A DNA stretch of 64,000 bases from Thermoanaerobaculia bacterium (GCA_035636095.1 DASPZU010000015.1:15371-79370), one strand, 5' to 3'; positions 909 through 64,000 are shown, counted from the stretch's first letter. Notes: generated from the sequence alone by a model not told the origin. Translations and numbers: made by a program.

Positions 909-3698
909 ATGACCCGCGTAGCCCGACTCGTCGCCGCGTTTCTCCTCTTCTCTGCGATTTCCGAAGCCCGAGTTATTTCGTATGCGCCGTACACAAATCG
1001 CGCGTCGATCCCTGCCGTTCAGAATCGGCTCAATCGGCATTTCGTGCTGATCGAGCAAACCCCGGCGGGTTCGAGTTCGATCATTTCTCCACCTCCTCCG
1101 TGCTGCAATAACCCCACACCGTCGCAGCTCGTCCTCTACGACGCGCAGGGCCTGGAGGAGCCGCGCGTCATCTTTCCTGCCGATGGGTCGTCGTCTGCCA
1201 TCAGCAGCGCGACGGTTCGCGAAGAGGCAGGCGTTGTCTCCATCCTCATCCAGACCAGCGCCAATTTCCTCGGCGCCAACCCGACCAATCAGTTCATCTG
1301 GCTGCTGACGAATGACAGCGGCGCGAGCTGGATGAAGGTGGCGATTCCGACAACCCCCACCGTGACGACCCTGGCGGCCGACTTCGGCGGACCGTTCGCG
1401 CGGGGCCGCTACAGCAACGTACGGGTCGGGACACCTGAAGTGCCGTTCGTCGTCGGCAATTCGCTGGGTGTATTCGCCGTGTCGAATGTCGGCACGGTGA
1501 AGCAAATTTTCACTTCAAGCGTGATGTCGACAATTCCGCTGATCGGCTCCGATCGCGAAGGGCGACGATTCCTCGTCAACGCGCCCAACACGATTTACAC
1601 CGTCGATATCAACGGCAATCAAAGCGCAGTTGCGGCGAGGCCGGGCGCGGTTACGATCGAAGGTTGGATCACCCCCGACGGCGCCGCGTACCTCGAGCAG
1701 GCATTCAGTCCAGGCAATGTCGTGCTGTTTTACGCGAAGGACGGCAATATCACACCGGTCGCCGCCTCGTGGGATGGCCCGCCTAACGCGCAGCCACCGA
1801 TCAATTCTTCGTGGATATTTTTCGCGGTCCCGACCAGCGACTACTCCGGCGCGTGGGTCATGCGTCGCGGCGGCAATCGCCCGACGTCGCTTTTGCTGCA
1901 CACGCCGACTGCTGGACTCGTTCAGCAATGGCAGGACGTGTCGGCGCCGCAGGTCGAAGCGCTGCACGCCGCACCGTCAGGGACGAAGCTTCTGGTCCAG
2001 GTGCATCGCCCAAGACAGAGCGTCGATAACCTCCTGTTCAAAGATCCGGCGCTCGCGGTCTGGCCCATCGGCAGTCCTGCACCGCGCTCGTACGACGAAT
2101 TATTTCTGAGCGAGACATCGACCAAAGGGTTCGTGCATCTCGACGTCGACGCCATCGCGGGCGGTGCGACGTTCGTTTTCGATTCCGGCGTCCCGCAGCC
2201 GCTGGGCGGCGGCGTCATCATCTCGCCCGCGCCGCCGAGCGCCGGCGGAAGCGACGTCGTCCAGGAGTGGGGCGTCGTACGCGGCTCACTGCGGCAACAG
2301 CTCGTGCTTCCCGGCGTCGGCCGCACCCCTGGTGCTTTCGGCAGCAACTGGGCGACGGACGTCACGATCTACAACCCGTCCGACGGCCCGCTGCAGGTGA
2401 ACCTCAATTACGTGCCGAACGGCGGCGCTCCGGTTGCCGACGTCTTTGTCAATCTGTTGCTGCAGCCGCGTGAGATCCGCTCCATTCCCGACATCCTCGG
2501 CACCCTGTTCAACATCGACAACAGCAGCGGCGCGTTGTACATCTCTCCCGAGCAAGGCGGCGGCGTCAACATCACCAGCCGCACCTACAACAAGGCCGGC
2601 AACGGAACTTACGGCTTCACGATGAACGGGATCGATGTCTTCACCGCCGCCGGTCCACGCTTTCCGCTGACGTTCTCCGGCGCATTCGAAGGGGCGAACT
2701 TCCGCACCAACGTGATGCTGACCGACGTCTCCGGCCGCGGCACCGAAGTCTCCGCAACGGCCGCGAGCCCGAATGGATCGAGCGCAACGGAAGCGGTGAC
2801 GCTCACCGGCCCGAAGTCTGGGCAGACACAGATCAACGGCGTGGCGCCGCTGGTCGGACTGTCAACGACCGATACCGGCGCGCTCGTTTTGCGGCCTAAC
2901 AAGGGTGAGCTGCTGGCCTCCGTCTTCGTCGTCGACAATCGCACCAACGATCCGACCTTCTTCCCGCCCGATATTCCGGCCTCCGTCATGCGCGTCATTC
3001 CCGCCATCGGACACCTCGACGGCGCGAATGGATCGAAGTTCCGAAGCGATCTCTATCTCTTCAACAACTCTGCGCAGGTGAAGACGCTGACGCTCCAGGC
3101 GAAACTGTGGGACGTCTCGGAAAATCCGAGCACCCTGCAATTCACATTGCTCCCTTTCGAGGCCCGCGTGATCCGTGACGTGTTGATGACGGCCTTCGGC
3201 AAGACCGGCATCGCGCGATTGCGCTTCACAGCGCAAGGCACGACCAACGACACCAGCGTTCGCGTCACTTCGCGCACCTACACCATCGATCCCAGCGGCG
3301 GAACGTACGGCTTCCTCATGCCGCCGCTCAACAGCTTCCAATCCGGCGGCCCGGGTGACACGCTCGAGATTCTCGGCGCCACCCTCGATCCTCGTTTCCG
3401 CACCAACCTCGGCCTCGTTGATTTGACGGCCTTTCCGGGACCGAGGGCTGCGCGCGCGAAGATCGAGATCATCGACGACGCGGGCAAGGCGCTCGACAGT
3501 TTCGAGGTCAGCATCCTCTCCGCCGGCGGCATGCAGATCAACGATCTCTTCCACGGCCGCAGCCTGCCGGAGAGCGGCAAGCCGGTGCTGATTCGAGTGA
3601 CGACAATCGAGGGCATGATCGGTGCGTACGCCGCCTTCGTCGACAACGGCACCAATGACCCAGCCTACGTGGCGGCCAATTTAGCTGCGAAGGAGTAG
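909..3698 (+). CDS. Large secreted repeat-module protein (929 aa), function unknown
   Basis: ATG is preceded by AAGGAGG. Signal peptide MTRVARLVAAFLLFSAISEA. The composition is beta-rich (T/S/G/N). It contains at least two to three copies of a module carrying P-x-x-G-x-x-G-A-x-G-S-x-W/F ... NP ... Y-V-P. The module is paralogous to the partial gene at 63344. Confidence 0.6.
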   Translation: MTRVARLVAAFLLFSAISEARVISYAPYTNRASIPAVQNRLNRHFVLIEQTPAGSSSIISPPPPCCNNPTPSQLVLYDAQGLEEPRVIFPADGSSSAISSATVREEAGVVSILIQTSANFLGANPTNQFIWLLTNDSGASWMKVAIPTTPTVTTLAADFGGPFARGRYSNVRVGTPEVPFVVGNSLGVFAVSNVGTVKQIFTSSVMSTIPLIGSDREGRRFLVNAPNTIYTVDINGNQSAVAARPGAVTIEGWITPDGAAYLEQAFSPGNVVLFYAKDGNITPVAASWDGPPNAQPPINSSWIFFAVPTSDYSGAWVMRRGGNRPTSLLLHTPTAGLVQQWQDVSAPQVEALHAAPSGTKLLVQVHRPRQSVDNLLFKDPALAVWPIGSPAPRSYDELFLSETSTKGFVHLDVDAIAGGATFVFDSGVPQPLGGGVIISPAPPSAGGSDVVQEWGVVRGSLRQQLVLPGVGRTPGAFGSNWATDVTIYNPSDGPLQVNLNYVPNGGAPVADVFVNLLLQPREIRSIPDILGTLFNIDNSSGALYISPEQGGGVNITSRTYNKAGNGTYGFTMNGIDVFTAAGPRFPLTFSGAFEGANFRTNVMLTDVSGRGTEVSATAASPNGSSATEAVTLTGPKSGQTQINGVAPLVGLSTTDTGALVLRPNKGELLASVFVVDNRTNDPTFFPPDIPASVMRVIPAIGHLDGANGSKFRSDLYLFNNSAQVKTLTLQAKLWDVSENPSTLQFTLLPFEARVIRDVLMTAFGKTGIARLRFTAQGTTNDTSVRVTSRTYTIDPSGGTYGFLMPPLNSFQSGGPGDTLEILGATLDPRFRTNLGLVDLTAFPGPRAARAKIEIIDDAGKALDSFEVSILSAGGMQINDLFHGRSLPESGKPVLIRVTTIEGMIGAYAAFVDNGTNDPAYVAANLAAKE

Positions 3699-3758
3699 CC
3701 GCCCACGCGCCCGGTTGGGACGTTGGGATGTTGGGATGAGGGCTGTATGGCAGCCCTC
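3699..3758 (+). repeat. Left arm of a heptamer-array inverted repeat plus a terminator-like GC hairpin
   Basis: Leader CCCACGCGCCCGG is followed by (GTTGGGA)x3, then the hairpin GAGGGCTG-tatgg-CAGCCCTC and a U-rich tail. The mirror copy lies at 4143-4196. Confidence 0.6.
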
Positions 3759-4101
3759 ATCTTCGTCTGACGTAGCCGATGTATCCCTCCAGGGCGCGTC
3801 GCGATTCGTCGAGAGTTTCGAAGGGTTCTTTGCGCCGCAAGTAACCTACGCGTTCAGCGATGATCAGCTGCGTCTCGAGCTCGAACAATGATCCACGGGC
3901 CTGACTCAGAAATTGCCTTCGCTCACCCGAAGTCAGACGTCCTTCACCTTCAGCAATATTTGAGGGGATTGAGACCGCACTCTTTCGCACCTGATGCGTC
4001 AACCCGTAAATTTCTCGGCCGGGAAAAGCGTCAGTCACACGATAGATTTGCTCACAGAGAGTCATGGCGTGTTGCCACGCGACAAGGTCCTTGTAATTCA
4101 T
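3757..4101 (-). CDS. Four-helix-bundle protein (23S rRNA intervening-sequence protein / Avd-like family)
   Basis: 114 aa starting MNYKDLVAWQ...IYGLTHQVRKSAVSIPSNIAEGEGR...FLSQARGSLFELETQL, which is characteristic of the TIGR02436/PF05635-type four-helix bundle. ATG start at 4101. Confidence 0.8.
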   Translation of the reverse strand: MNYKDLVAWQHAMTLCEQIYRVTDAFPGREIYGLTHQVRKSAVSIPSNIAEGEGRLTSGERRQFLSQARGSLFELETQLIIAERVGYLRRKEPFETLDESRRALEGYIGYVRRR

Positions 4102-4196: not shown

Positions 4197-6104
4197 TCAG
4201 TGCGACCGTTCGTTCCCAATCCGCGTCTGGCTGAGCGTTTCCTGAAATTGCGGCGCGGGGACGGGGAAGCCGAAGTAGAAGCCCTGCACCTCGCGGCAGC
4301 CGTGCTCCCTCAGAAAATCGAGCTGCGGCTTGGTCTCGACTCCCTCCGCCACGACGCGCAGGTTGAGTCCCTGCGCGAGCTCGATGACCGACCGAACGAT
4401 GGCGGCATCTTCGAATCGGTCGGGCAGGTCCTCCACGAAATTGCGATCGATTTTGAGGCAGTCGATCGGGAAGCGTTTCAGGTAGCTCAGCGATGAGTGC
4501 CCCATGCCGAAATCGTCGATGGCGATGCTGATACCGGTGCGGCGCAAGCGCTCGAGTACCTTGAAAGTCAGATCGACATTCTCCATGGCCACGCTCTCGG
4601 TGATCTCGAGCTCGAGACACTCCGGTTCGATCCGCGCCTGCTTGATGGCCGACTCGATTCCGTCAACCAGCGAGAGCTCGCGGAACTGGCGCGCGGAAAG
4701 ATTCACGGCCACCCTGAAATCGGGGAAGCCGAGGTCCCGGAAGGCGCGGGCCTGATGAAGGGCGGTGCGCAGCACCCAATCGCCGATCAACACGATGAAT
4801 CCGCGCTCTTCGGCCACGGACAGGAAACTTCCCGGCGACATGAGCCCGCGCTCCGGATGCCGCCATCGCAGGAGTGCCTCCATGCCCACGATGCGATTGG
4901 TGCGGATGTCGATCTGGGGCTGGTAGTAGACCTCGAACTCGTTCCGCTCCATGGCCTGATGCAGACCGCTTTCGAGTGTCAGGCGCTCCTGCATCGAGCG
5001 GCTCAGCTCCTGGGTCGACATCTCGTAGCAATTGCGGCCGACCGCTTTCGCTCGATACATGGCATTGTCGGCGTTCTTGAGCAGCGTCTCGGCGTCCTCG
5101 CCGTCGTCGGGATAGACGGTGATGCCGACGCTGGCGGTGATGTAGAGGCGCTGGCCGTCGATGTCGATCGGCTCGGCGATGATCCGCAACACGCGCTGCG
5201 CCATCGATGCCGCGTCTTCTTTCTTTTCCAGCTCCTGAAGGACGATGGTGAACTCGTCGCCGCCGACGCGGGCCACGACATCGCCTTCGCGCACGCTGTT
5301 TTTCAAACGCGTTGCGATCTCGCGCAACAAACTGTCTCCGAGTGTGTGACCGAGGGAGTCGTTGACGACTTTGAAGTTATCGAGGTCGAGGAACAGCACC
5401 GCCACCGGGCGCCGCTTGCGCTGGGCAAGGGCAAGCGCGAGCGTCAGATGTTCCTGGAAGAGCCGGCGGTTGGCGAGTCCGGTGAGCGCGTCGTGATACG
5501 ACTGGTACTCCATCTGCTGCTCGGCGCGCTTTCGGTCGGTCAGATCGAGAATCTTGCCGATGACACCCGAGACGTTGCCCTTCGAATCAAACTGCGGGCG
5601 GTAGGAAGCGGTGATCCATCCCTGCCGGTCAGTTCCGGGAATCATGTACGAGGTCTCGGCGAGCGAAACTGTCTCGCCCATCAGGACGCGCGCCAGGATG
5701 TCGTCGATGGGCTGTTCGCCGAGGACGGGGAAGAAATCGCCGGCGCGTTTGCCCAGGACTTCCTCGGCGCGAAGACCGGTGAACTCTTCCATGAAGTGAT
5801 TCCAGACCTGACAACGCAGCTCCCGGTCGTAGACCACAATTCCCTCGGCGACATTCGACATGATGTCGGTAGCAAGGTCGGGATCATGGCGTACGCTCTC
5901 GGGGGTGGGGGCGGGCTCGGGCTCGCGCGATTCGCGGGGAGCGCTCCGCTCGCGCATCCGAACCAGCTGGGGCGTGCGTCCGGTGAGAGCGAGGGTGATC
6001 GATACGAAAGCGGAACCGACGACGATGCACACAGCCACCAACGCGGCGGAGATGGCTATGGCGAGGACAACTAGAGCGGCGGAAATCACTACCTCAGCCG
6101 GCAT
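4197..6104 (-). CDS. Membrane-anchored PAS-GGDEF-EAL protein (diguanylate cyclase/phosphodiesterase)
   Basis: N-terminal transmembrane segment. GGDEF (VARVGGDEF) and EAL (EALLRW) motifs are both intact. The track start at 6143 is TTG; the in-frame ATG (MPAEVV...) at 6104 is the alternative. Confidence 0.85.
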   Translation of the reverse strand: MPAEVVISAALVVLAIAISAALVAVCIVVGSAFVSITLALTGRTPQLVRMRERSAPRESREPEPAPTPESVRHDPDLATDIMSNVAEGIVVYDRELRCQVWNHFMEEFTGLRAEEVLGKRAGDFFPVLGEQPIDDILARVLMGETVSLAETSYMIPGTDRQGWITASYRPQFDSKGNVSGVIGKILDLTDRKRAEQQMEYQSYHDALTGLANRRLFQEHLTLALALAQRKRRPVAVLFLDLDNFKVVNDSLGHTLGDSLLREIATRLKNSVREGDVVARVGGDEFTIVLQELEKKEDAASMAQRVLRIIAEPIDIDGQRLYITASVGITVYPDDGEDAETLLKNADNAMYRAKAVGRNCYEMSTQELSRSMQERLTLESGLHQAMERNEFEVYYQPQIDIRTNRIVGMEALLRWRHPERGLMSPGSFLSVAEERGFIVLIGDWVLRTALHQARAFRDLGFPDFRVAVNLSARQFRELSLVDGIESAIKQARIEPECLELEITESVAMENVDLTFKVLERLRRTGISIAIDDFGMGHSSLSYLKRFPIDCLKIDRNFVEDLPDRFEDAAIVRSVIELAQGLNLRVVAEGVETKPQLDFLREHGCREVQGFYFGFPVPAPQFQETLSQTRIGNERSH

Positions 6105-6256
6105 CCGCAAAAATAGTGTCGTCGACTCGCGAAAATGTTGCAAGAAAAAACTTTAGGGTAATTATCGACAGATTTCAGTCTCAAGATCATGAGCTATTGC
6201 GATTCGCGCCCGTTTCTGATCAGCAGGAGCTCGCGACCAGGTAGGGGCTCACGCGG

Positions 6257-6610: not shown

Positions 6611-7021
6611 TCACCCCTGCAGAAAAAACCAGAACACCAGCCACGAGGCGGCGAGAAATCCGAGATAGTGAGCGAGTAGCACCATTCGGCCTGGAACCTG
6701 ACGATGCCTCACACGGATCACCATCGCTTTCGGTGCCAGCTTGAGCCAGGTGATCGTATGAAAAAGCACGGCAACGAAGATCAGGGTGTGGAGAATCAAC
6801 GCAAGAGGAGACTGCAGAAACCGCATGAACCGCGCGTAGGTTTGCTCCCCGCCGCTGAGCATCCATACGAATACGACCAGAAGGACCGCCGAGTAGCCGA
6901 CCGCAAGACTGGTCAATTCGCGGATGATGAACTTGATATAGGAGAGTCTTTCCAACCACCAGAAAATCGGCATCTGGGCGCGGTACCACCTCGGGTGGTA
7001 GAGCTTGTAGGTCGGATTCAC
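6611..7021 (-). CDS. frdC: Fumarate reductase membrane anchor subunit C
   Basis: ...[28 protein letters not shown] resembles the E. coli FrdC N-terminus ([24 protein letters not shown]). The start is GTG at 7021 overlapping the frdB stop (GTGA), or ATG at 6973. Confidence 0.7.
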
Positions 7022-7758
7022 TGTTTTCCCCACGGCATCAACACCGATTTGATCCAATCCATCGTCGCCTGCACCTTGTAACGCTGAATCGCGCCAGCCG
7101 GATCGACCTTTTTCGGACAGACCACCGAGCACTCGCCGACGAATGTGCAGTTCCAGATGCCGTAGTGCGTCGACAACACATCCATCCTCTCGTCCGATCC
7201 CTGATCGCGTGAATCCATGTTGTAGCGCTGCGCGAGGGCGATGGCCGCCGGGCCAATGAACAGCGGCTCGAGCGGATAGATCGGACAGGCCGAATAGCAC
7301 AGCAGGCAGTTGATGCACATGCTGTACTTCTTGTATTCCGCCAGCTCTTCGGGTGTCTGCAGGTACTCTCCCTCGGAGAGCGGCTTCTCATGTGTGCGAG
7401 TGATCCACGGCTTGACGCGCTCGAGTTTGTCGACGAAGTCCTGAATGTCGACGACAAGATCGCGAATCACGGGAAACGCTTTCAGCGGCTCGACGCGGAC
7501 CGGGGCCGACACGCTGGACAGATAGGTCGCACAAGTGAGCACCGGCTCGCCATTCACCATCATCCCGCAGCTTCCGCATACGCCCATCCGGCACGCCCAA
7601 CGGTACGAGAGACTCCCGTCGAGATGATCCTTGATGTAATTGAGGGCATCGAGCACCATCCACTCGGAGCGGGCCGGAACCTCGAAGACGTCCCAGGAGG
7701 GCTTCTCCTCCTCTTCCGGCCGATAGCGCTGAATCTCGACGGTGACCAACTCTGTCAT
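7018..7758 (-). CDS. frdB: Fumarate reductase / succinate dehydrogenase iron-sulfur subunit
   Basis: Cysteine clusters [15 protein letters not shown] and [15 protein letters not shown] at 7758. Confidence 0.9.
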
Positions 7759-7759
7759 T

Positions 7760-9502
7760 TCACCTCCCGTATACCCGATCCGCCGGCGGCCAGCGGGTGA
7801 TGGTTACCGGTAGATACTCGATCCTTGGTGCTCCCGCTTCGTTTTTGTAGGCCAGGGAGTGAGCGAGAAACTTCGAGTCGTCTCGCTGTGGGTGATCGGT
7901 GCGCTGATGGGCGCCTCGCGATTCCTTCCGCTGCAGTCCGGAGTGGATGATCGATTCGGCGAGATCGAGCATATACGAGAGCTCCAGGCATCCGACCAAC
8001 TCGGTGTTGAAGGTGCGGCTTCTATCCTCCAGTGAGATGGAATGGAATCTCTCCTTGAGCGCAGCAATTTTTCCAGCCGCCGTCTCCAGACCACGCTGAT
8101 CCCGATAGATGCCCGCCCCTGCCTCCATGGTCAGCTGCATGTCGGTCCTCAAGTCGGCCAGCCGCTCCTTGCCGTTTTTCTTCTCGAGGAAATCTCCCAG
8201 CAGGTGGCGCTCCTCATCCATCGCCTGAGCCAGCACAGCGCGACTTGGACCGCCCTGAGTGGTCGCGAATGCGGCGGCGGCCTTTCCAGCGCGCGCTCCA
8301 AAGACGAGCAGCTCGGTGAGGGAGTTGGAACCGAGGCGGTTCGCCCCATTGATGCTGACGCAAGCCGCTTCGCCGGCGGCGTAGAGTCCGGGCAGAGGCG
8401 TCGCTCCCTCAATGTCGGTGTGGACCCCTCCCATCATGTAGTGCACCACCGGTCTGACCGGGATGAGCTCTCGCACCGGATCGACGTTCTCATACTTGAG
8501 GCATAGCTCTCGGACGAAGGGCAACTTCGTATCGATGAGTTTCTCGCCAAGGTGTCGAATGTCGAGATGAACGACGTGGCCGTGCGGCGTTTCGACCGTG
8601 CGTCCTTTTTCCATCTCCTTGACGAAGGCCTGTGACAGACGGTCGCGAGGTCCCAGCTCCATCGATCGCAGGACCGGCTTCGGCTCCGGCGTGCCGAGGT
8701 TGTAGTCCTGAAGGTAGCGGTAGCCATCCTTGTTGATCAGCCATCCTCCCTCCGAGCGCGCCGCCTCGGTGATCAGAATTCCGGTAAATGGGAGACCGGT
8801 CGGATGGTACTGAACAAACTCCATATCCTTCAGCGGGACTCCGGCGCGGTACGCCAGCGCCATCCCATCGCCCGTTTTGATGTTGGCGTTGGTCGTGAAA
8901 GCGAACACTTTTCCGCACCCTCCGGTGCAGAGGATCACCGCCTTAGCCAGGATGGCGTGAATCTTTCCGCTGGCCAGCTCGATGGCCACCACCCCCTGGC
9001 ATCGACCTTCGTCGACGAGCAGCGTGGTGACAAACCACTCATCGTAACGAGCAACGGTCTTGTACTTCAGCGTGGTCTGAAAAAGCGTGTGAAGCATGTG
9101 GAAGCCGGTCTTGTCGGCGGCAAACCACGTGCGCTCGATCTTCATCCCGCCGAAAGGTCTGACCGCAATGTGGCCGTCGGGCTCCCGGCTCCATGGGCAG
9201 CCCCAGTGCTCCAACCGGATCATCTCTTCCGGAGCCTCGCGCACGAAGGCCTCGACGGCATCCTGATCCGATAACCAGTCGCTGCCGCTGACGGTGTCGT
9301 AAGCATGGGCGTCGAGGCTGTCGTTCGCCTTGATGACCGCCGCCGCCCCTCCTTCCGCGGAGACGGTATGGCTCCGCATGGGGTAGACCTTGGAGACCAC
9401 GGCGACGCTGAGATTCGGATTGGTTTCGGCGATGGCGATCGCGGCCCGCAGACCTGCGCCTCCACCGCCCACCAGAAGAACGTCGTGAAAGGAAGTTTCC
9501 AT
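7760..9502 (-). CDS. frdA: Fumarate reductase flavoprotein subunit
   Basis: FAD-binding N-terminus [17 protein letters not shown] and the covalent-FAD region [13 protein letters not shown] at 9502 (METSFHD...) with GGGAG upstream. The track ORF is over-extended to 9589. Confidence 0.9.
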
Positions 9503-9575
9503 CGCTCCCGGTGTGATTGTATTTCGCGAGTTCAGAGGAGTATATCGTGCGAAGATCCGTCGGAAGGAAGGCGTC

Positions 9576-10073
9576 ATGTTCGAGCTCAAGCCGTTGTCGA
9601 AGGAAGCGATCCCGAAAGCGCTGGAGAGAGCGGATCGCTATCGACTGCTCAACGAGCCGGGCGAGGCCGAGAGTATCTGCATGGATGTGCTGGCGGCGGA
9701 GCCTGAAAATCAACGCGCTCTGGTGACGCTCATCCTGGCCCTGACGGATCAATTCGGACAGCAACGGTTCAATGTTGGCGACAATCGATGTGACGAATTC
9801 ATCGCGCGTCTGCACGACAAGTACGAACGCGTGTACTACGCCGGTGTTGTTTGCGAACGGCGAGCGAAGGCCGCCTACAGCCACCATCAGGGTGGAACGA
9901 TGGCCTATGAATGGTTTCGCGATGCCATGGGCTTTTACGAAGAAGCGGAAAAGCTCCGTCCGGCGGGGAACGACGATGCTGTTCTGCGATGGAACACCTG
10001 CGCGCGCATTCTTCAGAGCAATCGCGATCTGCAACCGGCCGAAGAGCAGGGCATCGAGCCCTACCTGGAGTGA
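9576..10073 (+). CDS. Hypothetical protein (about 165 aa, helical, TPR-like?)
   Basis: ATG with GGAAGGAAG upstream. No motif I can name. It is divergent from frdA and overlaps the 3' end of the Rieske gene by about 13 nt. Confidence 0.45.
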
Positions 10074-45945: not shown

Positions 45946-48048
45946 TCAGCGGACGGTGATCGTTACAGAATCGCGGCGGCCTTCGTCGTCGACGGCGGTG
46001 ATCGTGTGCCTGCCCCCGCGCAGAGACCACGCGTCATCTGTGTGACGGCCATCGACCATCCACGTTACGGGAGCGGTGGCTTTGAGCTGAAGCGCCTGGA
46101 ACTCGGCACGAAGGGTTGGATCGATCCAGTAAGTCGCGCCCTCGGCGGGATTCAAGATGTGAAGGACAGGCGAGCGACGGGCTGAAGCCGGACCCACATC
46201 CCAGGCGCGATATTCAGCAGGCAATTCAACGCGCTGCGAGTGATGCCACGAACAGAATTCGACGCGATTTGAGGCGGGCATCCACTCGCTTTCGACGGCG
46301 GGACACTCCATCGACGGACGATGGCCGGAGAGCGCGCAAATCGGCCGCCGCTCGAGATCGGCAGGACGATCGACGATCGTTCCCCGCCCGCCCCCCACTC
46401 TCTTCACGGCCGCCAGCATCACGTCGTGAAAAATCGGCGCGGCGCCGGTGATGCCGCTCGAGTTGCGCAACTCGCTGCGATCGAAATTCCCCACCCACAC
46501 GCCGACAGTGATTTCGCGCGTGTACCCGACCGTCCAGTTGTCGCGATAGGCCTGCGAAGTTCCGGTCTTCACGGCGACCTGGAATGGGAAATCGAGACTG
46601 CCGCCCGATCCGAAGATGTACTCGCGGGCGTGTTCATCGCTGAGGATGTCGGTGATCCAGAACGCGGTGCGCTGCGACATCACGCCATCACCGCCGCGCG
46701 CGAAGATGGCATACGCCGTCACCAACTGCTCCAGGGTCACCTCGGCATCGCCGAGCGTCAGGCCGACTCCGTAGTAGTCGGCGGTGTGCGTGAGATCACG
46801 GAAGCCGGCGTGGCGAAGGAATCGCAGCAGCGACTCGGGACCGATTTTGGCGAGCGTCGCCACTGCCGGCACGTTTTCCGACCCGGCAAGCGCGACGCGC
46901 GCGCGCAGTGGTCCGCGAAATTTTCCATCGTAGTTGCGGGGCGTGTAGATGACGCCCGGCTCAGCAGTCGCGAAATGCGACGGCACGTCCGCGATGACCG
47001 TGGCGGGAGTCAAGCCTTGCTCGAAAGCGAGCGCGTACGTCAACGGCTTCAGAGTCGATCCAGGCTGGCGCAGCGTCGTCACGCCATCGATCGCGCCGCC
47101 GAAATTTTCACCGAAGTAATCGCCCGAGCCTTCCCACGCCAGCCATTCGCGCGTCCGATTGTCGAGGACCGCGATCGCGACGCTGTGCGCGCCGTGGCGC
47201 AGCAGATCGGAGCGATGCGCCGCGATGATGCCGTGGATTTCGCGCTGGAGATTTGCATCGAGAGAGGTGCGAATGATCGCCGCCGAGGTCGACGGCGCTC
47301 CACTGAGAATCCGCGCGACAAAATGCGGCGCGATCATCGGATGGCGTCCGCGGTCGAACGACAAACGCTCCGCGCGAGCGGTGCGGTAGTCGGGCTCGGA
47401 GATCATCTTCAGCTCACGCAGGCGGCGGAGGATCAAGCGTTGACGCTGTAGCGCGAGCCTGGGCGTTCCGGGTCGTCGCGGCAAAGCCGCCAGATATGCC
47501 GCCTGCGCGATGGTGAGTTGATCAGGCTGGCAGCCGAAGTAGCGATCGCTCGCGCGCGCGATTCCCACGGTCTGCTGGCCATAAGGGGCCAGATTCAGGT
47601 ACAACGCCAGAATCTCGGCCTTGGAGTGACGATGCTCGAGTCTGAGCGCCGTGATCGCCTCGCGAACTTTCGAGCGGACGCTGCGCGGCGCGCCCGGAAC
47701 CATGAGCTTCGCGACTTGCTGCGTGATCGTCGATCCCCCTTCGACGACGCGCACGTGCAGGAGATTGTGGAAGGCCGCTCGCGCGGTGCCGATCGGATCG
47801 ATGCCGATGTGATGGTAAAAGCGGTGATCTTCCGCGGCCATGGCGGCCTTGGCGATGTTGTCGGGAATCGCCGTGATCCAGGTGCTGCGCGTCCCATTTG
47901 CCGACAGCGGCTCGGAAAGAATGATGCCGTTGCGATCGACGATGGTCGGCGTCGTCTCGGGTCTGATCTCTGGAATCGGCCCAATTCGCATCCAAATAGC
48001 GAGACTGATGACCGACAACAGACAACCGACAACCGACAACTTTTTCAA
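45946..48048 (-). CDS. pbpC: Penicillin-binding protein 1C (glycosyltransferase + transpeptidase)
   Basis: GT51 motifs AEDHRFYHHIGID and GGSTITQQVAKL, with a transpeptidase domain. TTG start overlaps the A2M stop (TTGA). The signal peptide is encoded by (CCGACAA)n. Confidence 0.85.
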   Translation of the reverse strand: MKKLSVVGCLLSVISLAIWMRIGPIPEIRPETTPTIVDRNGIILSEPLSANGTRSTWITAIPDNIAKAAMAAEDHRFYHHIGIDPIGTARAAFHNLLHVRVVEGGSTITQQVAKLMVPGAPRSVRSKVREAITALRLEHRHSKAEILALYLNLAPYGQQTVGIARASDRYFGCQPDQLTIAQAAYLAALPRRPGTPRLALQRQRLILRRLRELKMISEPDYRTARAERLSFDRGRHPMIAPHFVARILSGAPSTSAAIIRTSLDANLQREIHGIIAAHRSDLLRHGAHSVAIAVLDNRTREWLAWEGSGDYFGENFGGAIDGVTTLRQPGSTLKPLTYALAFEQGLTPATVIADVPSHFATAEPGVIYTPRNYDGKFRGPLRARVALAGSENVPAVATLAKIGPESLLRFLRHAGFRDLTHTADYYGVGLTLGDAEVTLEQLVTAYAIFARGGDGVMSQRTAFWITDILSDEHAREYIFGSGGSLDFPFQVAVKTGTSQAYRDNWTVGYTREITVGVWVGNFDRSELRNSSGITGAAPIFHDVMLAAVKRVGGGRGTIVDRPADLERRPICALSGHRPSMECPAVESEWMPASNRVEFCSWHHSQRVELPAEYRAWDVGPASARRSPVLHILNPAEGATYWIDPTLRAEFQALQLKATAPVTWMVDGRHTDDAWSLRGGRHTITAVDDEGRRDSVTITVR

Positions 48049-51000
48049 GGCTTGACCTCCACGACGTCGGTGGAGGTGCGGCCGAACACTTCCGGCTCAT
48101 ACATCTCCTCGACGCGCGCAGGGGCGGCGATGAATGTGCCGGCGGTCGTGGCGCGGACGAGGTACGTGAATTCGTGGACGCCTTCATCGAGCCGCGTCGC
48201 AAAAAGATTGACGCGATCGTCGTGGCGCTCGATGTGATCGAACCCGCCGTGGCGCCACCACGACGTCCAGTCGTAGTTCTCGGGATTGTCGGTTCGAAGC
48301 TGCTCGGACATTTCCGAGGCCGTGGTCGCGAACCAGGTGTCGACCGGCTCGGTGCCGGCCGGAATCGGATCGGTGACCGCCACGTAGCGGCGCTCCTTGG
48401 TGTTGCGCAAGCGGAGCGTGACCTTGATCAGATCGCCGGCTTTGAAATCCTTCTGCGAGTAATGCCGCTCGATCGAGAATCCGCGGTCGGCAGAATCGTG
48501 GAAGATGCCTGTCAGGCCATACTTCAGCGTCACGAGGTAGAACAGCGTGCCGGTGCCCTCGCGGTTGAAGATCACCGCCGAGGTCGGCGGTGCTCCACTG
48601 AGCTTCATCATCGGCACGTCGTGCGTCTTGGCCTCGGTCGTCCTTCCGCGGAATTCGTCGCGCGCGATGACGGAGTCGGCAACCGTCGCGGTGGCGGTGA
48701 AATTCGGCGGTTCCTTCTCGTAGCGCTTGTAGTAATCGATGAGCGATTCCATCGCCCAGGCGTTCTCCTGCGTGTTGCCCCAGCGCCCTTTCACGCGCAC
48801 CTTCATCAGCCAGCGCACGATCTGCTTTGTCATCTGCTCATCGGCGGTATTGCGGACCAGCGCGTCGAGAACGATGGCGCTGCTTCGCACGTTGGAATTC
48901 CAGAACCACAGCAGGTACGGATCGGCCAGCTCCTCGACATGCGCCGTTCCACCTTCGGGAAGAATCGCGTTGTTGATGCGGCGCAGGAGCTCGGTGCGAT
49001 GCTGCGGGTCGGCATCGGCGAGAAATGCGATGCCGAAGACCGGCATACGATCGACATACGAATACAGCCGGTTGATATGGCTGTCCTCGTTGCGTCCGCC
49101 CTCGACCAGCACTTTGACCGCGAAGGCTTGCCAGGCAGTGTAGGCCGGCCACCAGCCTTCGTTCTCCGGCCGCTGCTCCTTGAGACTGCCGTCGAGATAG
49201 TCGTACGCGCGTTTGAGAACATCGGCGCTGACGTCGTAGTTCAACTTCTGTCCGCGCTGCAGCACGTGAACGACGTTGGCGGTCAGATATGGCGACGTGA
49301 ACCGGCAATCGCCCGGCCAGTAGGCGAATCCGCCGTTGGGACACTGGAACTTGTATAGCTCGATGATCGTCTGCTGCGCGATGGTACGACCCTTCTTGGC
49401 GTCGATGCCCGGCAGCGCGAAGGCGTCGCCGAGGTCGGCGGTGAGCATGAGGGCCATGGCGCCGGACGCGCGTTGCTCGGCGCATCCGTACGGATATTCG
49501 ACCAGATACTCCGCCCCCTCGGCCAGACCGACCATGGCGGTCGATGACAGCTCCAGGTGCAGGCCGCCAATCGACGGCACGACGTCGTGCGGAACTTCGA
49601 GAGTTTCCCTGGCAGTCGGTTTCGCTTCGCCGTAGGCCGCGACAGTTTCGGTGGGACTGAGCAGGCGAACCGGTAGCACATCTTCGAACGCGTCGCTCTC
49701 GCCGTTCAGATTGACGGTCATTTGAAGGCGCGCGACGCCGACCGATTTCGCAGCAGCGTTGAATCGAACTTCCGCCGTCCCCTGCGGCCCGACATCGATC
49801 GCTGAAGTTGGATCGCCGGTGATCTCGACGATCGCCGGATCGAGCGATTTGATCGTGACCGTCGCTCTACCGCCTTGTTTCAACTGCGAGTGGACCACCG
49901 ATCCGAAATAGGCCTTGTCGCCGAGGGCCAGGAATCGCGGGAAGGCCTGGGTGAGCAGCACGGGCTTGTTGATGCGGATCTCGTTTTGTCCCCAGCCGAA
50001 TCGCGAGACCTTGTCACCCGCGACGGCCATGATGCGATAGGTCGTCAGCGATTCAGGCAATGTCACGTCAGCGTGCGCGCGGCCGCGCGCGTCGGTCGCG
50101 ATCGAGCCAAGCCAAAACGCCAGGACGCGGAAGTCGCGCCGCATCATCCCCGGCCCCGACTCCGCCCCGCCGCCCCCACCCTGCGTCGCTCCCTTGGGCG
50201 TCAACACACGCCGGCTGACGATTTTCTGCCGCGAATCGTCGTTGACGACCTGCAGCGCCTTGCTGATGTAGATCGATTCGAGCACGTCCGGCGTTCGGTA
50301 GCCGGTCAGCGAGAGCACGCCGTAGTCGACTGCCCATAGCGTGACTTCAGAACGAACTGCTTTCCCATCCACGTCATGAACGTTGACGTCGACGCTGGCC
50401 CTGGCGGCCGGACGAAACTCGCTGCTGTTCGCTTTGACGTCGACCTTGAGGCGCTTGGTTGCATCCTCGACTTGCAGCTCGACGTAGCCGAGTCGAAACG
50501 TCGGCTTGCCGGGGTCGCTTTCGTCTTCGACGCCCTCCTTCGTCCGGCCTTTGACGAGCAACACCGAGACGAAAACATTGGGGATCTCGTGCTCGGTGAT
50601 CGGCACCGTGACGGTTTGCTGCGTCGAGGTCAGCTCGAATGGCGTCCAGGTGCGCACGCCTTCTCGCTCGGTGGTCAGCAGCGCTGTGGCGCGCTCCCAC
50701 GGCGACTTGATCATGATGCGGGCCGTTTCGCCGGGGCGATACGTTTTCCGTTCCGGCACGAGGTCGATGCGGTTGCTGTCGTATCGCGCCCATGCCGTGT
50801 AGCCGGGACCGAGGGCGTAGAACCAACTGCGCGTGGTCGTCGATCGGCCTTGCGCATCGGATGCACGCGCAATGAGGACGTATTCGCCGCCGTCGTTCAA
50901 GGGCACATGCAGCGGCACCGGTTGCCCCTCCGAAGTGATCGTCCACGTGCCGGCCGGGATTTCCTTACGCTTCGTTTCCCAGGTGTAAAAACCGTTTCCG

Positions 51001-53849: not shown

Positions 53850-56048
53850 TCACTCGGCCGGAACAAGCGCGGCCGCCGGCCTTCCCAGCAGAAATCCCTG
53901 CACTTCCTCGCAGCCGGCGGCGCGCAGAAATGCCAGCTCCGCCGCGGTTTCGACGCCCTCAGCCACCACGCGCAGGTTGAGTCCACGGGCCATGGCGATG
54001 ATGGCGGACACGATGGCGCGGTCGGCGGCACTCCAATCGATGGCGTGCACGAATTCCTGATCGATCTTCACGCTGTGAATCGGAAACCGCCGCAGATAGC
54101 TCAGCGCCGAGTGACCGGTGCCGAAATCGTCCAGCGCCAGCTGCACGCCCATTTCGTTCAGCCGGTTGAGGGTCGCGATGGTGCGCTCCGAGTTCTGCAT
54201 GGCGGCGCTCTCAGTGATCTCGAGCTGCAGATCGCGCGGAGCAAGTCCCGATTCTTCCAGCGCGGCGCTGATCATCTTGACCAGGTCGGTGTGCTGAAAC
54301 TGCCACGGTGAAAGGTTCACCGACATGCGCAGCTCGGGATAGTCCCGCTGCCATCGCTTGGCCTGGCGACAAGCCTGACGCAGCACCCACTCCCCGATGG
54401 GTACGATCAGCCGCGTCTCTTCGGCAATGGGGATGAAGTCGGCCGGCTCGATCGGCTCCTGACCGGGACGATTCCAGCGCAAGAGCGCCTCCATCCCCAC
54501 CATCGATTCGGTCGCGACCTTGATGACGGGCTGATAGTGCAGGCTGAATTCGCCGCGCTCGATGGCATGCCGCAGGCTGTTCTCGAGCGACATCCGCTCC
54601 ATCGCGCGCGTGTTCATCGAGGGCGTGAAGAGCTGCACCAGGTTGGGCCCGGCTTCTTTGGCGCGATACATGGCGTGATCGGCATTCTTCAGCAGCGCTT
54701 CGGCGGTGTCGCCGTCGTTGGGAAACAGCGCGATGCCGACACTGGTGGTGATGAAGATCTCCGTCCCTTCGACACGGAGCGGCTGCGCGACGACGTCGAG
54801 GATCTTCTGCGCGATTCTGACCGCGTCATCGGCAGTTTTCAGGTTCGCGATGAGAATGGTGAACTCGTCGCCGCCCATGCGCGCGATCGAGTCTTCCTGC
54901 CGCAGCGCGCTTCGGAGCCGGATCGCGATGGCCTTGAGCAGCTCGTCACCGAAACTGTGCCCCAGGCTGTCGTTGACGTCCTTGAAGCGATCGAGATCGA
55001 GAAAGACAACCGCCAGCGGCGTGTCCATGCGCCGCGCGTGCGCCAGCGCGATGGTCAGGCGGTCGCGAAACAGCCGCCGGTTCGGCAAACCGGTCAGCGC
55101 GTCGTGGTAAGCCTGATGCTCGATCTGCTCCTCGACGATTTTTCTTTCCGTGATATCGCGCGAGACGCTGATGAACTCATCGACGTCGTTGGTGAGGGGA
55201 TTTCGCACCGAGCGGCTGGTGGTTTCGAACCACGCCGATGCTCCGCTCTTTTTCATGAGCCGGTAGGTGTAGGTCGTGGGCGTGGTCTCGTTGATCAGAT
55301 AGCTGAGATGCCGCGTCTCTTCACGATCATCGGGATGCATGAATTCGTAAATCGATCGGCCCACAAGCTCCGCGGCTTCATAGCCGATCAGTCGCCGACA
55401 GGCATCGGAGGCGTAGAGGATGATGCCGGAAGTGGTCGTGCGCGAGATGATGTCGGTCGAGTTCTCTGCCATCAGTCGGTAGCGGGCCTCACTCTCGCGC
55501 AAGGCGCGCTCCACGCGATTGCGCTGCAGCGCGTTGATGAAGATTTCGCCGGTGATCCTGAGCAGCGCCACGGTCTCGTCGGACCATTCCACTTTCGAGG
55601 CGCTGCCAACGCCCAGGACGCCGATGGTTTCACGGTTGTACAGCATTGGGATGGCGATGGCAGATCGATTGCCCCCTTCTTGATAGACCTCGCGCTCTCG
55701 TGCGGCCTCTTCCGGCATGTCGTCGACGTCCACCACGATGTGTTGCTGCTGCAGAAGGTGGCGCATGGTCCACGGAAAGTCGGCGATTGAAAAATTTCGG
55801 TCCGAACCGGTGGCGGGCCATTCATAGACCATACGCGCTGTTTTCCGATCATCAGAAAACAGATAGACGGAGGAGTGATCGGCGCCTACGAAGCGAGCAA
55901 CCGTGCCGAGGGCCTCACTGATGCCGTTGTCGATCTCCTCGGGCGGAAGATTGATGAAGTTCGTGGAAATCGACGAAATCAGCTTCTCGAAGTCGAGACG
56001 GTGGCGCAGCGAATTCGTCTTGGAGACCAAGCTTTGGAATCGTAACAA
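53850..56048 (-). CDS. GAF-PAS-GGDEF-EAL signalling protein
   Basis: N-terminal GAF-like and PAS regions. GGDEF (IARMGGDEF) and EAL (EALLRW) motifs are intact. TTG start. Confidence 0.9.
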
Positions 56049-63343: not shown

Positions 63344-64000
63344 TATGAGAGCCATCAGATTAGCGGTCGTTTGTTGCCTTTTCCTCGGTGTTTCCTCGGC
63401 CTTTGCACAGCTCAATGACACGTACGTGATTCCTGTCGCGGGCAATACGCCGGGAGCATTCGGCACGCGCTGGATGACGCAATTCAGCGTCTTCAATCCG
63501 CAGTCCTACGCGCTGAAAGTCAGCATCACATACGTTCCAACGCTCGGCGGAAAGGGGCTGGAAGCGCTCATTCGCGTTCCTGCGAACGCAGTGGCGTTCT
63601 CGAACAACGTTCTCAGCGATGTTTTCAATTTGTCGGGCGGCGGCGCGCTGCTGGTCGCGACGTTCGCCGAAGACAACCCCGGCGTTCCGAACGACGTGAT
63701 CTCGCGCGCGTTTCTGGTCACGACGAACACGTTCAACAACTCCTCCGCCGGAACCTTCGGTCAGACGATCCCGGGCGTGTGGGCTGGGCTGATGGATTTC
63801 GACACCGATGGGATCAGCGCCGTGGCGCACGGCGTCCGCAACATCTCGCGTCAGGGGTGGCGGACCAATGTCGGCGCCGTCAACCTCGGCCGAACGAGCA
63901 TCACCATGCGATTGAATGTCTACGACATCGACGGCAACACGGTCGCGCGCAACATTCCGTTCACGATTCCGCCTCTGGCGCACATGCAGGACACGCTGCC
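63344..64000 (+). CDS. Secreted protein (N-terminal part; runs off the window), paralogue of the 909-3698 repeat module
   Basis: ATG preceded by GAGGGGTGAG. Signal peptide MRAIRLAVVCCLFLGVSSAFA. YVIPVAGNTPGAFGTRWMTQFSVFNPQ...ITYVP matches LVLPGVGRTPGAFGSNWATDVTIYNPS...LNYVP in the first gene. It is not in the ORF track because no stop falls in the window. Confidence 0.6.

Follow-up and report, generated by a model that had tools for sequence, protein, structure and literature searches.

Results

Two genes for exported paralogues

The window, i.e. the whole 64,000-nucleotide stretch of Thermoanaerobaculia DNA that was analysed (GCA_035636095.1, DASPZU010000015.1:15371-79370), contains two genes, here called p1 and p2, which code for exported paralogues with a common beta-rich module (Table 1). 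Only the 5' part of p2 (218 codons) is available, because the gene is cut by the end of the window. The paralogy, which had been claimed in a preliminary description of this DNA, proved to be real. In BLASTP the partial p2 protein matched p1 at residues 461-575 (E = 7e-16, 29% identity) and, in a second match, at residues 696-839 (E = 9e-5), and a profile made from three copies detected two modules in p1 (residues 462-693 and 694-929) and one in p2, where it begins at residue ~24. The same profile found no further copy in the six-frame translation of the window (next best E = 2.8).

Some details of the preliminary description had to be changed. The partial second gene exists, with its start at 63345, one base after the proposed 63344. 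The module is ~235 aa long, not 180-200 aa, and of the two to three copies suggested for p1 two were found. We rejected a third, degenerate copy within the first 460 residues because the HMM finds none there and the region folds as a propeller in the model. The motifs quoted in the description are indeed the conserved ones in the orthologue alignment. The T/S/G/N-rich composition was also borne out (G 11%, T 9.3%, S 7% and N 6.3% in the module region), as was the lack of a Cys pattern: the module region has no Cys, and the sole two Cys of p1, at positions 65-66, are in a low-confidence loop. The C-terminus of p1, ...YVAANLAAKE, shows no sorting motif, in agreement with the earlier reading.

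Table 1. Features of p1 and p2 in the window
Feature	Position (nt)	Strand	Basis
p1 gene, complete, 929 aa exported protein	909..3698	+	ORF list
p1 layout: signal peptide, beta-propeller, linker, four ASRT-like beta-sandwiches	909..3698	+	ORF, profile, AlphaFold2 model
p1 Sec signal peptide, residues 1-20, putative cleavage after SEA, no lipobox Cys; MTRVARLVAAFLLFSAISEA followed by RVISY	909..968	+	read from sequence
p1 beta-propeller, residues ~21-430, probably 7 or 8 blades	969..2198	+	model, Foldseek
Single Asp-box (BNR-type), T134-W141, TNDSGASW	1308..1331	+	p1 orthologue alignment
Gly/Pro/Ser-rich linker and conserved lead-in QEWGVV to module 1	2199..2291	+	model, alignment
Module 1, first sandwich, residues 462-575, VLPGVGRTPGAFGSNW-ATDVTIYN ... 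TSRTYN..GNGTYG	2292..2633	+	profile
Module 1, second sandwich, residues 576-693, FRTNVMLTDV ... VVDNRTNDPTFFPP	2634..2987	+	HHalign
Module 2, first sandwich, residues 694-810, VIPAIGHLDGANGSKF-RSDLYLFN ... TSRTYT...GGTYG	2988..3338	+	BLASTP, profile, model
Module 2, second sandwich, residues 811-929, FRTNLGLVDL ... FVDNGTNDPAYVAA, protein end	3339..3695	+	profile, model
p2 gene, 5' part, 218 codons, cut by window end	63345..64000	+	ORF, BLASTP, module profile
p2 signal peptide, residues 1-21	63345-63407	+	

Both proteins have many relatives. There are more than 664 homologues of p1. Nearly all of the 120 listed have a length of ~900-950 aa; they are annotated as 'hypothetical', have no Pfam domain and come from Thermoanaerobaculia wherever the taxon is named. 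For p2 we found 833 homologues, and the 120 listed are 63-95% identical to the query, the full-length ones among them having ~290-340 aa. In the full-length p2 orthologues that were aligned (~307 aa) the module ends with ...YVSVIDQLSGDPTYQSP and is followed by a tail of ~50 aa. Pfam and NCBIfam scans of p1 and p2 at E <= 10 revealed no family, only noise (YlzJ, TrkA_TMD, TIGR03769).

The N-terminal part of p1

The AlphaFold2 model of p1 is all-beta, with a mean pLDDT of 87.6 and a pTM of 0.87 for the whole chain. Residues 2-15 of the signal peptide form a helix in the model. The cleavage site was deduced by reading the sequence; A20 is conserved in at least 90% of the p1 orthologues and R21 is invariant. 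Further invariant residues of the N-terminal part are Y25, R40, E49, R367 and R369.

The propeller was modelled with 32 strands in eight groups of four. When the whole p1 model was compared with the PDB by Foldseek, only generic propellers were found: PLL/PHL lectins (TMt ~0.5), prolyl-oligopeptidase propellers, SorCS2 and sialidases. As a guide to the module this search was uninformative, being swamped by the propellers. The propeller region had no Pfam match at E <= 10, and did not match the BNR, sialidase, Sortilin-Vps10 or PSII_BNR profiles of Pfam and NCBIfam. An Asp-box is defined as S-x-D-x-G-x-T-W; the consensus in the p1 family is S-x-D-G-G-x-T-W, with W141 invariant and D136 and G138 conserved in at least 90% of the sequences. 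The BNR/Asp-box propellers of the sialidase, sortilin-Vps10 and Ycf48 types have a repeated Asp-box; p1 has one clear Asp-box, and its propeller fold is borne out by the model and the Foldseek search. In the linker, residues 434-453 are disordered in the model (pLDDT < 50), and Q452, E453, W454 and G455 are invariant among the p1 orthologues.

The module is a duplicated beta-sandwich

The ~235-aa module consists of two eight-stranded beta-sandwiches of ~115 aa each (pLDDT 83.4 in the structure model of a single module). Sequence comparison indicates that each module is an internal duplication, a sandwich dyad. HHalign aligned the N-terminal with the C-terminal half over 90 columns (E = 2.9e-5, probability 74%), the HMM of the second half (h2) cross-matches first-half (h1) regions in other proteins, and every protein inspected shows a strict alternation of h1 with h2. 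Since the module is made of two sandwiches, p1 is composed of a signal peptide, a propeller and four sandwiches; p2 consists of a signal peptide and two sandwiches, with the short tail in full-length orthologues. The module motifs are W-x-[TS]-D-x-x-h-x-N, SRTYN-x4-GTYGQ, FRTN-x-G-x-V-N and [VI]DN-x-T-[GN]-DP, and W481, D484, N489, T559, G566, G569, R599, T600, D676, N677 and D681 are invariant in the p1 orthologue alignment.

Size, partners and distribution of the module family

The module family comprises 8,212 representatives of clusters at 50% identity at E <= 1e-3, and 5,896 at E <= 1e-10. Pfam and NCBIfam recognise none of these clusters save for occasional weak DUF5719 matches. Of 84 diverse representatives, 54 carried the module at the extreme C-terminus and 20 directly after the signal peptide, and in 12% it was internal; among the matches listed from GTDB genomes, 88 of 117 ORFs had it at the extreme C-terminus. 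Module pairs were directly adjacent in 75 of 83 cases, and with few exceptions a protein has precisely one or two dyads, adjacent and terminal. A protein search with the half-domain alignment yielded 19 short proteins. The module is joined to a variety of extracellular domains: PKD, LVIVD/choice-of-anchor B, PPC, Peptidase_S8, M10, cadherin, Ig and FGE-sulfatase. A single glycoside-hydrolase match was seen among 80 fused proteins (the NCBIfam F510_1955 family, 1/47), and Pfam glycoside-hydrolase domains were absent from the families listed for these 80, thus the usual hallmark of a CBM that targets a substrate is essentially missing. The matches listed from a motif scan of GTDB came almost only from Acidobacteriota MAGs, with one 'Deltaproteobacteria' and one 'uncultured bacterium'.

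The gene neighbourhoods are uninformative on the function of the module. The neighbours are genes for an amine oxidase, an IVS protein, a PAS-GGDEF-EAL protein, citrate synthase, RsmE and SAICAR synthase; p1 adjoins the convergent PAS-GGDEF-EAL gene, and p2 lies between the citrate synthase and SAICAR synthase genes. We discarded an operon-based assignment of function: the genes nearby either have housekeeping roles or are convergent, and what is conserved is the positions only, without functional partners.

Relation to ASRT, TM1070 and DUF5719

The ASRAH superfamily was described by De Souza, Iyer and Aravind in 2009 on the basis of three small families (PMC2739507). Its members include ASRT, the Anabaena sensory rhodopsin transducer (PDB 2II7, PF07100), and Thermotoga TM1070 (PDB 1NC7), which are, like the module half, eight-stranded beta-sandwiches of ~110 residues; the TM1070 fold is found in the module halves. 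When 48,164 chains were ranked, TM1070 and ASRT took the two highest places, clearly ahead of all others. In Foldseek with the module alone ASRT (2ii8_F, probability 1.00, TMt 0.66) gave the sole compact superposition. The other matches (complement C4b, vicilins, factor XIII, SIDT1, PNGase F) were dismissed as weak two-domain matches, poorly superposed at TM <= 0.3.

One hallmark of the superfamily is a nearly invariant Asn, which ends strand 2 and is followed by a tight turn without gaps (PMC2739507). This Asn is present in the module: N489 does not vary in the p1 family, and in the module alignments the equivalent column is conserved in at least 90% of the sequences or in all of them. In hmmsearch, in HHalign and in the Pfam ASRT match this position aligns with the Asn of CILN (ASRT) and CIMN (TM1070). 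In the second sandwiches of p1 the position is occupied by Asp (D606, D838), and in the wider-family consensus FRTNxGxVN by Asn. The other hallmark, a well-conserved Trp that follows a polar residue where strand 1 begins (PMC2739507), was not found in the module alignments, where strand 1 reads [VIL]-[VIL]-P-[AGV]-[VA]-[AG]. The module has its conserved Trp/Phe (W481, F711) where strand 2 begins, eight residues ahead of the Asn and in the position of the Ser of the ASRT signature SHEshChhN. The His and Cys of this signature, which belong to the ligand pocket of TM1070, are not conserved in the module.

In hmmsearch the half-domain profile gave P = 5.1e-5 and 1.5e-4 against TM1070 and ASRT, and HHalign of a half-domain with ASRT gave P = 0.001 and a probability of 21%. 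The Pfam ASRT model matched one of ten distant homologues (E = 8.4e-4, 19.7 bits as against a cut-off of 25) and none of 46 half-domains, and PDB sequence searches with the module, full-length and half-domain profiles returned nothing meaningful.

A further connection is provided by DUF5719 (PF18986, gathering cut-off 26.2 bits), which matched inside the module in four of the ten distant homologues (29.7-42.3 bits), in 10 of 47 proteins at E <= 0.01 and in 4 of 46 single half-domains, where it was the sole recurrent family. DUF5719 is also the only other Pfam match of ASRT (E = 0.069, model positions 175-224), and the module matches the same region of the model (positions 176-310). No profile joins p1 or p2 directly to DUF5719 or ASRT; the sequence link is transitive, made up of individually weak matches, below threshold for ASRT, that fall in one register. 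From these comparisons we infer that the module is probably homologous to ASRT. DUF5719 had no match in p1 or p2 at E <= 10, and none in the first half-domain of p1 at E <= 1. Because distant homologues pass the Pfam threshold and p1 and p2 do not, the two proteins are relatives of DUF5719, not members by the Pfam criterion. The statement that the domain is unnamed holds for p1 and p2, which match nothing in Pfam or NCBIfam at E <= 10, but not for distant relatives, which reach the DUF5719 gathering score. None of the Pfam families matched is well characterised with a known function, since neither DUF5719 nor ASRT has an experimentally settled biochemical function, and in this sense the claimed novelty is not refuted.

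Discussion

It is instructive to compare p1 and p2 with DUF5719, which we take to be the third ASRAH family: an actinobacterial cell-surface lipoprotein with two ASRAH domains and an inactive metallopeptidase as neighbour. That family was described as an actinobacterial lipoprotein with a lipobox Cys and with WhiB, glycosyltransferase and metallopeptidase genes nearby (PMC2739507). Like DUF5719, p1 and p2 are exported, multi-sandwich proteins; unlike the third ASRAH family, they have signal peptides without a lipobox Cys and neither WhiB nor glycosyltransferase neighbours. The module family also differs from DUF5719 in belonging to another phylum, the Acidobacteriota, and in being fused, usually at the C-terminus, to propellers, proteases and adhesin repeats.

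Both ASRT and TM1070 are homotetramers of a cytoplasmic protein with a single domain, whereas p1 and p2 have four and two domains, respectively, in one exported chain, and the module has no tie to sugar-metabolism operons or rhodopsin. The secreted ASRAH families are dyads or tetrads able to mimic the homotetramer (PMC2739507); p2 has one dyad and p1 two adjacent dyads. For a putative tetramer-like packing of the four p1 sandwiches the only hint is the pTM of 0.87 for the whole chain.

The explanation that we favour, and to which we assign as a whole a probability of roughly 0.55, is that p1 and p2, both Sec-exported and non-lipidated, represent a very large branch of ASRAH that has so far gone without annotation, is abundant in Thermoanaerobaculia and Holophagae and has DUF5719 as its nearest Pfam model, and in which exported dyads of the ASRT/TM1070 type serve as a glycan-binding platform for the envelope or matrix. 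The role of the dyad or tetrad would most likely be non-catalytic glycan binding or attachment to the cell envelope. In this scheme the dyad or tetrad would be a non-catalytic platform that binds a cell-envelope or matrix glycan, four sandwiches in one chain would reproduce the TM1070 homotetramer with ligand clefts corresponding to the TM1070 subunit interfaces, and the platform would keep a variable partner domain at the cell surface. The partner would be the propeller in p1, and elsewhere a protease, a PKD/cadherin/Ig array, an LVIVD propeller or an FGE-type domain. The p2-type proteins would be stand-alone dyads, which could pair into a four-domain assembly. It must be noted that even in the case of ASRT and TM1070 the binding of sugar is a prediction, the predicted site for a sugar or small molecule being a cleft lined by strand 2 (PMC2739507). 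The beta-sandwich with carbohydrate- or surface-binding function that had been guessed for the module coincides with this sole published prediction for ASRAH.

The preliminary description had proposed a structural comparison with jelly-roll carbohydrate-binding modules. The module did turn out to be a beta-sandwich, but the beta-sandwich/jelly-roll CBMs (CBM8, CBM11, CBM29, CBM35) had lower structural scores than TM1070 and ASRT and no sequence relation to the module, and unlike CBMs the module almost never has glycoside hydrolases as partners (the one NCBIfam match in 80 proteins). ASRAH topology is unlike that of CBM4, which is circularly permuted and has its pocket on the opposite face (PMC2739507). 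With SLH, the T9SS C-terminal domain and PEP-CTERM the module shares a terminal position behind highly variable passengers and, like C-terminal sorting modules, it co-occurs with choice-of-anchor-type N-terminal domains. It has no sequence or fold match with any of the three, is much larger (~470 aa for the tetrad), occurs N-terminally as well and is the sole content of p2-type proteins. No machinery associated with the module was identified in the neighbourhoods.

Four other explanations must be weighed against the glycan-binding platform. The sandwich pairs may be inert spacers or stalks, like PKD, Big and Ig domains, which extend or rigidify the protein and bind no ligand. The co-occurrence of the module with PKD, Ig and cadherin arrays is in line with this, as is the location of the conserved Trp/Phe, Asn, SRTY, GTYG and DNxTxDP residues in turns and at the ends of strands, where residues that stabilise the fold would be expected; structural roles were assigned to the conserved Trp and Asn (PMC2739507), and the pocket residues of TM1070 are not conserved. 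Spacer repeats, however, usually vary in number, whereas the module occurs as one or two adjacent, terminal dyads, and p2-type proteins, which have almost nothing besides the dyad, are nevertheless 63-95% identical to the query (120 listed), as would be expected if the dyad had a function of its own. We consider a pure spacer role unlikely. A likeness to ASRT and TM1070 that arose by convergence, which would make the module an independent beta-sandwich family and in the strict evolutionary sense a new domain, seems similarly improbable: these two proteins lead the structural ranking with a clear gap, three independent sequence comparisons and the DUF5719 bridge align the same Asn strand-turn-strand in the same register, and the dyad/tetrad organisation is that of the secreted ASRAH proteins (PMC2739507).

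We are more sceptical still of p1 as an enzyme, with a sialidase- or GH-like Asp-box propeller and with the sandwiches as CBMs for an external polysaccharide rather than for the cell's own envelope. Glycosidase families gave no sequence match in Pfam, NCBIfam or the PDB, the best-superposing structures are lectin and peptidase propellers and not sialidases, ~32 strands make 7-8 blades as against six in sialidases and five in GH43, and the fusions in the wider family are mostly to proteases and adhesin-like repeats, with the one glycoside-hydrolase-family match in 80. Least credible to us is a role of the C-terminal tetrad in secretion or sorting, as a domain read by an export or attachment machinery and comparable to the T9SS C-terminal domain or PEP-CTERM/exosortase. 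The T9SS C-terminal domain is itself a beta-sandwich, and choice-of-anchor domains owe their name (an NCBI convention) to their occurrence with alternative C-terminal anchors. The module is at the extreme C-terminus in 64-75% of the proteins (in the GTDB part, among the matches listed), and its passengers are very diverse and include choice-of-anchor B/LVIVD domains. But ~470 residues are far above the size of any known sorting signal, 24% of the proteins have it right after the signal peptide and 12% internally, a p2-type protein would be a signal without cargo, and no conserved machinery genes were seen in the neighbourhoods examined.

The module is neither a new fold nor a new kind of system. 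It is one of the larger extracellular families without a database model (at least 8,212 clusters at 50% identity), and its placement in ASRAH enlarges a superfamily founded in 2009 on three small families, and offers a fold, domain boundaries and a glycan-binding/envelope hypothesis for the thousands of surface proteins that are listed as 'hypothetical' in Thermoanaerobaculia and Holophagae. Because the function of the module is only predicted, the value of this placement lies mainly in annotation and in the design of binding and localisation experiments in the poorly studied Acidobacteriota. The literature searched for ASRAH and DUF5719 by name contained no follow-up work, PMC2739507 being the only relevant paper; the single-chain tetrads could serve as test material for the idea, put forward there, of ligand sites at ASRAH interfaces.

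An anchoring role of the module may be envisaged. In its widest form, which we regard as doubtful though conceivable, the tetrad would be a widespread, previously unrecognised non-covalent envelope anchor in Acidobacteriota and other phyla, a single-chain glycan-binding pseudo-tetramer that replaces PEP-CTERM, LPXTG or T9SS signals on surface proteases, adhesins and propeller proteins. If this were true, the small, highly conserved p2-type dyads would be a core component of the envelope that uses the same ligand.

The common module and the structure of p1

The preliminary description had proposed paralogous secreted proteins with a common module at both ends of the window, and this proved to be real. 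In BLASTP the available part of the second protein (p2) gave two significant matches to the first (p1), at p1 residues 461-575 (E = 7e-16) and 696-839 (E = 9e-5), and a profile built from three copies found two modules in p1 (462-693 and 694-929), one in p2, and no additional ones when all frames of the 64 kb were covered. Some details had to be revised: the module is about 235 aa long rather than 180-200 aa, p1 has exactly two copies, not two to three, and the p2 ORF begins one base after position 63344. As had been described, the module region abounds in G, T, S and N; it contains no Cys. The sole two cysteines of p1, Cys65 and Cys66, are adjacent and lie in the insertion listed in the table.

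Features of the window discussed in the text
Feature	Position	Strand	Remarks
p1 ORF	909..3698	+	929 aa; typical Sec signal peptide MTRVARLVAAFLLFSAISEA/RVISY at N-terminus
p1 insertion, residues 54-65	1068-1103		SSSIISPPPPCCNNP; poorly conserved, low confidence (model pLDDT < 50)
p1 propeller, residues ~21-430	969-2198		
23S rRNA-intervening sequence protein gene	3757-4101	-	114 aa, four-helix bundle; PF05635, E = 1.6e-32
PAS-GGDEF-EAL gene	4197-6143	-	cyclic-di-GMP turnover
ORF of 246 aa	6249-6989	-	no Pfam match
Succinate dehydrogenase/fumarate reductase, iron-sulfur	7018-7758		
Succinate dehydrogenase/fumarate reductase, flavoprotein	7760-9589		
Alpha-2-macroglobulin gene and PBP1c-type gene	45946-53753	-	1,902 aa (MG2, bMG3, bait region, TED, bMG10); transglycosylase/transpeptidase with BiPBP_C domain
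PAS(-GAF)-GGDEF-EAL gene	53850-56048	-	cyclic-di-GMP turnover
p2 ORF, 5' part	63345-64000	+	218 codons, then window ends; N-terminus MRAIRLAVVCCLFLGVSSAFA/QLNDTYVIPVAGNTPGAFGTRW

The AlphaFold2 model of p1, made with 116 orthologues, is all-beta and confident (mean pLDDT 87.6, pTM 0.87). It consists of a beta-propeller, whose 32 strands fall into eight sets of four, a disordered linker (434-453) and the two modules with 16 strands each. The N- and C-terminal halves of the module aligned with each other in HHalign (E = 2.9e-5, 90 columns), G-x-x-W-x-T-D-x-x-h-x-N pairing with F-R-T-N-x-G-h-x-[ND] and TSRTYN..GTY with h-DN-x-TNDPTY. The profile of the second half-domain (h2) also matched first half-domains (h1) in other proteins, where the order of h1 and h2 was strictly alternating. 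We therefore regard the module as a dyad of constant make-up, its two sandwiches being homologous and each about 115 aa long; p1 carries a tetrad, p2 a dyad.

The p1 propeller matched no family profile, and Foldseek found only generic propellers in the PDB (Photorhabdus PLL/PHL lectins with TMt ~0.5, prolyl-oligopeptidase propellers, SorCS2, sialidases). It has a single Asp-box at T134-W141 (family consensus SxDGGxTW) and a conspicuous number of charged and aromatic residues that are invariant in the p1 family: R21, Y25, Y28, R40, E49, Y77, D78, E84, E105, D158, R367, R369, D379, D396, E397 and H410. It may be a lectin, or else an enzyme that has escaped recognition.

Probable relationship to ASRT, TM1070 and DUF5719

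Foldseek, which is insensitive here, gave a single compact superposition of the sandwich, with ASRT (2II8_F, probability 1.00, TMt 0.66); in the structure ranking TM1070 and ASRT are the top two of 48,164 chains, after which the score falls to 7.3 at a CBM8 and many jelly rolls and CBMs trail behind. The ASRAH superfamily of De Souza, Iyer and Aravind (PMC2739507) was founded on the structures of ASRT and TM1070. It is reported as an eight-stranded sandwich in which strand 1 carries a structural Trp and strand 2 ends in a near-invariant Asn, with a ligand cleft where the subunits of a homotetramer meet.

The window's own p1 and p2 matched nothing in the sequence-level family tests, therefore the tests were run through the wider family, collected by an exhaustive HMMER search of 1.84 billion cluster representatives with the module profile (8,212 proteins at E <= 1e-3, 5,896 at <= 1e-10, 1,891 at <= 1e-30). 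In Pfam scans DUF5719 (PF18986) was found within the module in 4 of 10 distant members (29.7-42.3 bits, cut-off 26.2), at E <= 0.01 in 10 of 47, and in 4 of 46 isolated half-domains, where no other family recurred. The module maps to no well-characterised Pfam domain of known function. Pfam ASRT matched one module of the distant members (E = 8.4e-4). For direct comparison the true sequences of ASRT and TM1070 were taken from a PDB search; the half-domain profile (46 diverse sequences) gave, per comparison, P = 5.1e-5 with TM1070 and P = 1.5e-4 with ASRT, and HHalign gave P = 0.001 but a probability of just 21%. All these alignments span one strand-turn-strand and place the invariant Asn of the module, N489 in p1, on the hallmark Asn of CIMN/CILN. 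The sole other Pfam match of ASRT is DUF5719 (E = 0.069, model positions 175-224); the modules align to this stretch too, starting at position 176, and for both the Asn falls near model position 180. The three-way relation is thus consistent in register, each link being weak or transitive.

One ASRAH hallmark is missing: the strand-1 Trp is absent, the module having a Trp/Phe at the start of strand 2 instead. The pocket His and Cys of TM1070 are not conserved either. We think that the module is probably, with fairly good confidence, an ASRAH dyad that has diverged, related to DUF5719 but not a member of it by Pfam's criterion. Convergence, and not homology, as the source of the likeness to ASRT is unlikely in our estimate.

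Architectures and possible function

The module occurs nearly always as one or two dyads, both in the best 150 representatives and in 120 loci from GTDB genomes. In the GTDB loci two modules were counted in 87 ORFs and one in 46. Of 83 module pairs in the family, 75 are directly adjacent. Secreted ASRAH versions were reported to "always occur either as dyads ... or as tetrads" (PMC2739507). Of 84 diverse representatives, 54 have the module at the protein end and 20 right behind the signal peptide; of 117 genomic ORFs, 88 have it at the end. Its partners are a mixed set of extracellular domains (PKD, LVIVD/choice-of-anchor B propellers, PPC, subtilases, matrixin, cadherin- and Ig-like repeats, FGE-sulfatase-type domains, Sortilin/BNR and NHL propellers), and a glycoside-hydrolase model, NCBIfam F510_1955 family, matched one of the 80 proteins scanned. 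Many ORFs of 1,100-2,400 aa in Thermoanaerobaculia and Holophagae finish exactly at a two-module tetrad (loci L005, L006, L031, L032, L038 and others), and in some loci (e.g. L006, L021, L033) two or three module-bearing ORFs adjoin, which points to local paralogue clusters. Among the matches listed by a motif scan of species-representative genomes, almost all are from MAGs of Acidobacteriota, including Thermoanaerobaculia and Holophagae. More than one module locus is present in several of these MAGs; module-bearing families are multi-copy per genome.

p1 and p2 are exported, and the unit of the family is a terminal beta-sandwich dyad or tetrad with varying cargo. The tetrad may assemble, in a single chain, a four-domain arrangement like the TM1070 homotetramer and would bind a glycan; p2-type proteins, as stand-alone dyads, could reach the same assembly by dimerisation. 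Since the module is combined with proteases, adhesin-like repeats and propellers, not with glycosidases, we favour as its target a polysaccharide in the envelope or matrix of the producer itself, leading to surface retention, over substrate targeting. To an ASRAH-type dyad or tetrad with a glycan-binding or anchoring role we assign a probability of roughly 0.55. The structural classification is rated higher than this combined statement; the anchoring or glycan-binding role by itself is tentative and falls somewhat short of even odds. That the module is an inert spacer is improbable, and slightly more so that p1 is a propeller enzyme with CBM-like modules. Least probable is a sorting or secretion domain, against which speak the large size of the unit, its N-terminal and internal occurrences, and p2, which has no cargo.

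Neither the fold nor the kind of system is new: the superfamily, the occurrence of its members as dyads and tetrads and the prediction of sugar binding were published in 2009 (PMC2739507). What is new is a branch, very large and invisible to the databases, that has motifs of its own, lacks the hallmark Trp and occurs in a new phyletic setting. New as well are its architectures (propeller plus tetrad, and C-terminal tetrads on many surface proteins).

Relatives and gene surroundings

More than 664 homologues of p1 were found; among the 120 listed nearly all have about 900-950 aa, all are unnamed or 'hypothetical protein', and none has a Pfam domain. For p2 there were 833 homologues; among the 120 listed identity is 63-95%, and the full-length ones (about 290-340 aa) consist of a signal peptide, one module and a tail of about 50 aa, which in the case of p2 lies beyond the window. 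The named homologues among the matches listed are all from Thermoanaerobaculia MAGs, which places the window in this class of Acidobacteriota. Both genes keep their position elsewhere: in a 1.6-Mb contig the p1 orthologue lies, as in the window, tail-to-tail with a PAS-GGDEF-EAL gene, and in a distant Thermoanaerobaculia contig the order MFS-RsmE-citrate synthase-p2 (orthologue at L002 8001-8993) is that of the window, followed by SAICAR synthase. The surroundings of p1 and p2 are housekeeping and suggest no operon partner. The unusually high conservation of the p2 family and its constant location, with citrate synthase on one side and SAICAR synthase on the other, suggest a core, possibly envelope-related role.

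The window encodes two cyclic-di-GMP turnover proteins of the PAS(-GAF)-GGDEF-EAL kind, the first being the conserved convergent neighbour of p1, also in the syntenic locus L001. The 23S rRNA-intervening sequence protein gene, which stands between p1 and this neighbour, is missing in L001. The rest is ordinary chromosome (sdhAB, alpha-2-macroglobulin and PBP1c, DsbD, HtrA, Ser/Thr kinase). The alpha-2-macroglobulin and PBP1c-type genes overlap by a few bases and represent the classical A2M-PBP1c periplasmic defence pair. The 246-aa ORF directly downstream of the succinate dehydrogenase/fumarate reductase genes possibly encodes a divergent membrane-anchor subunit.
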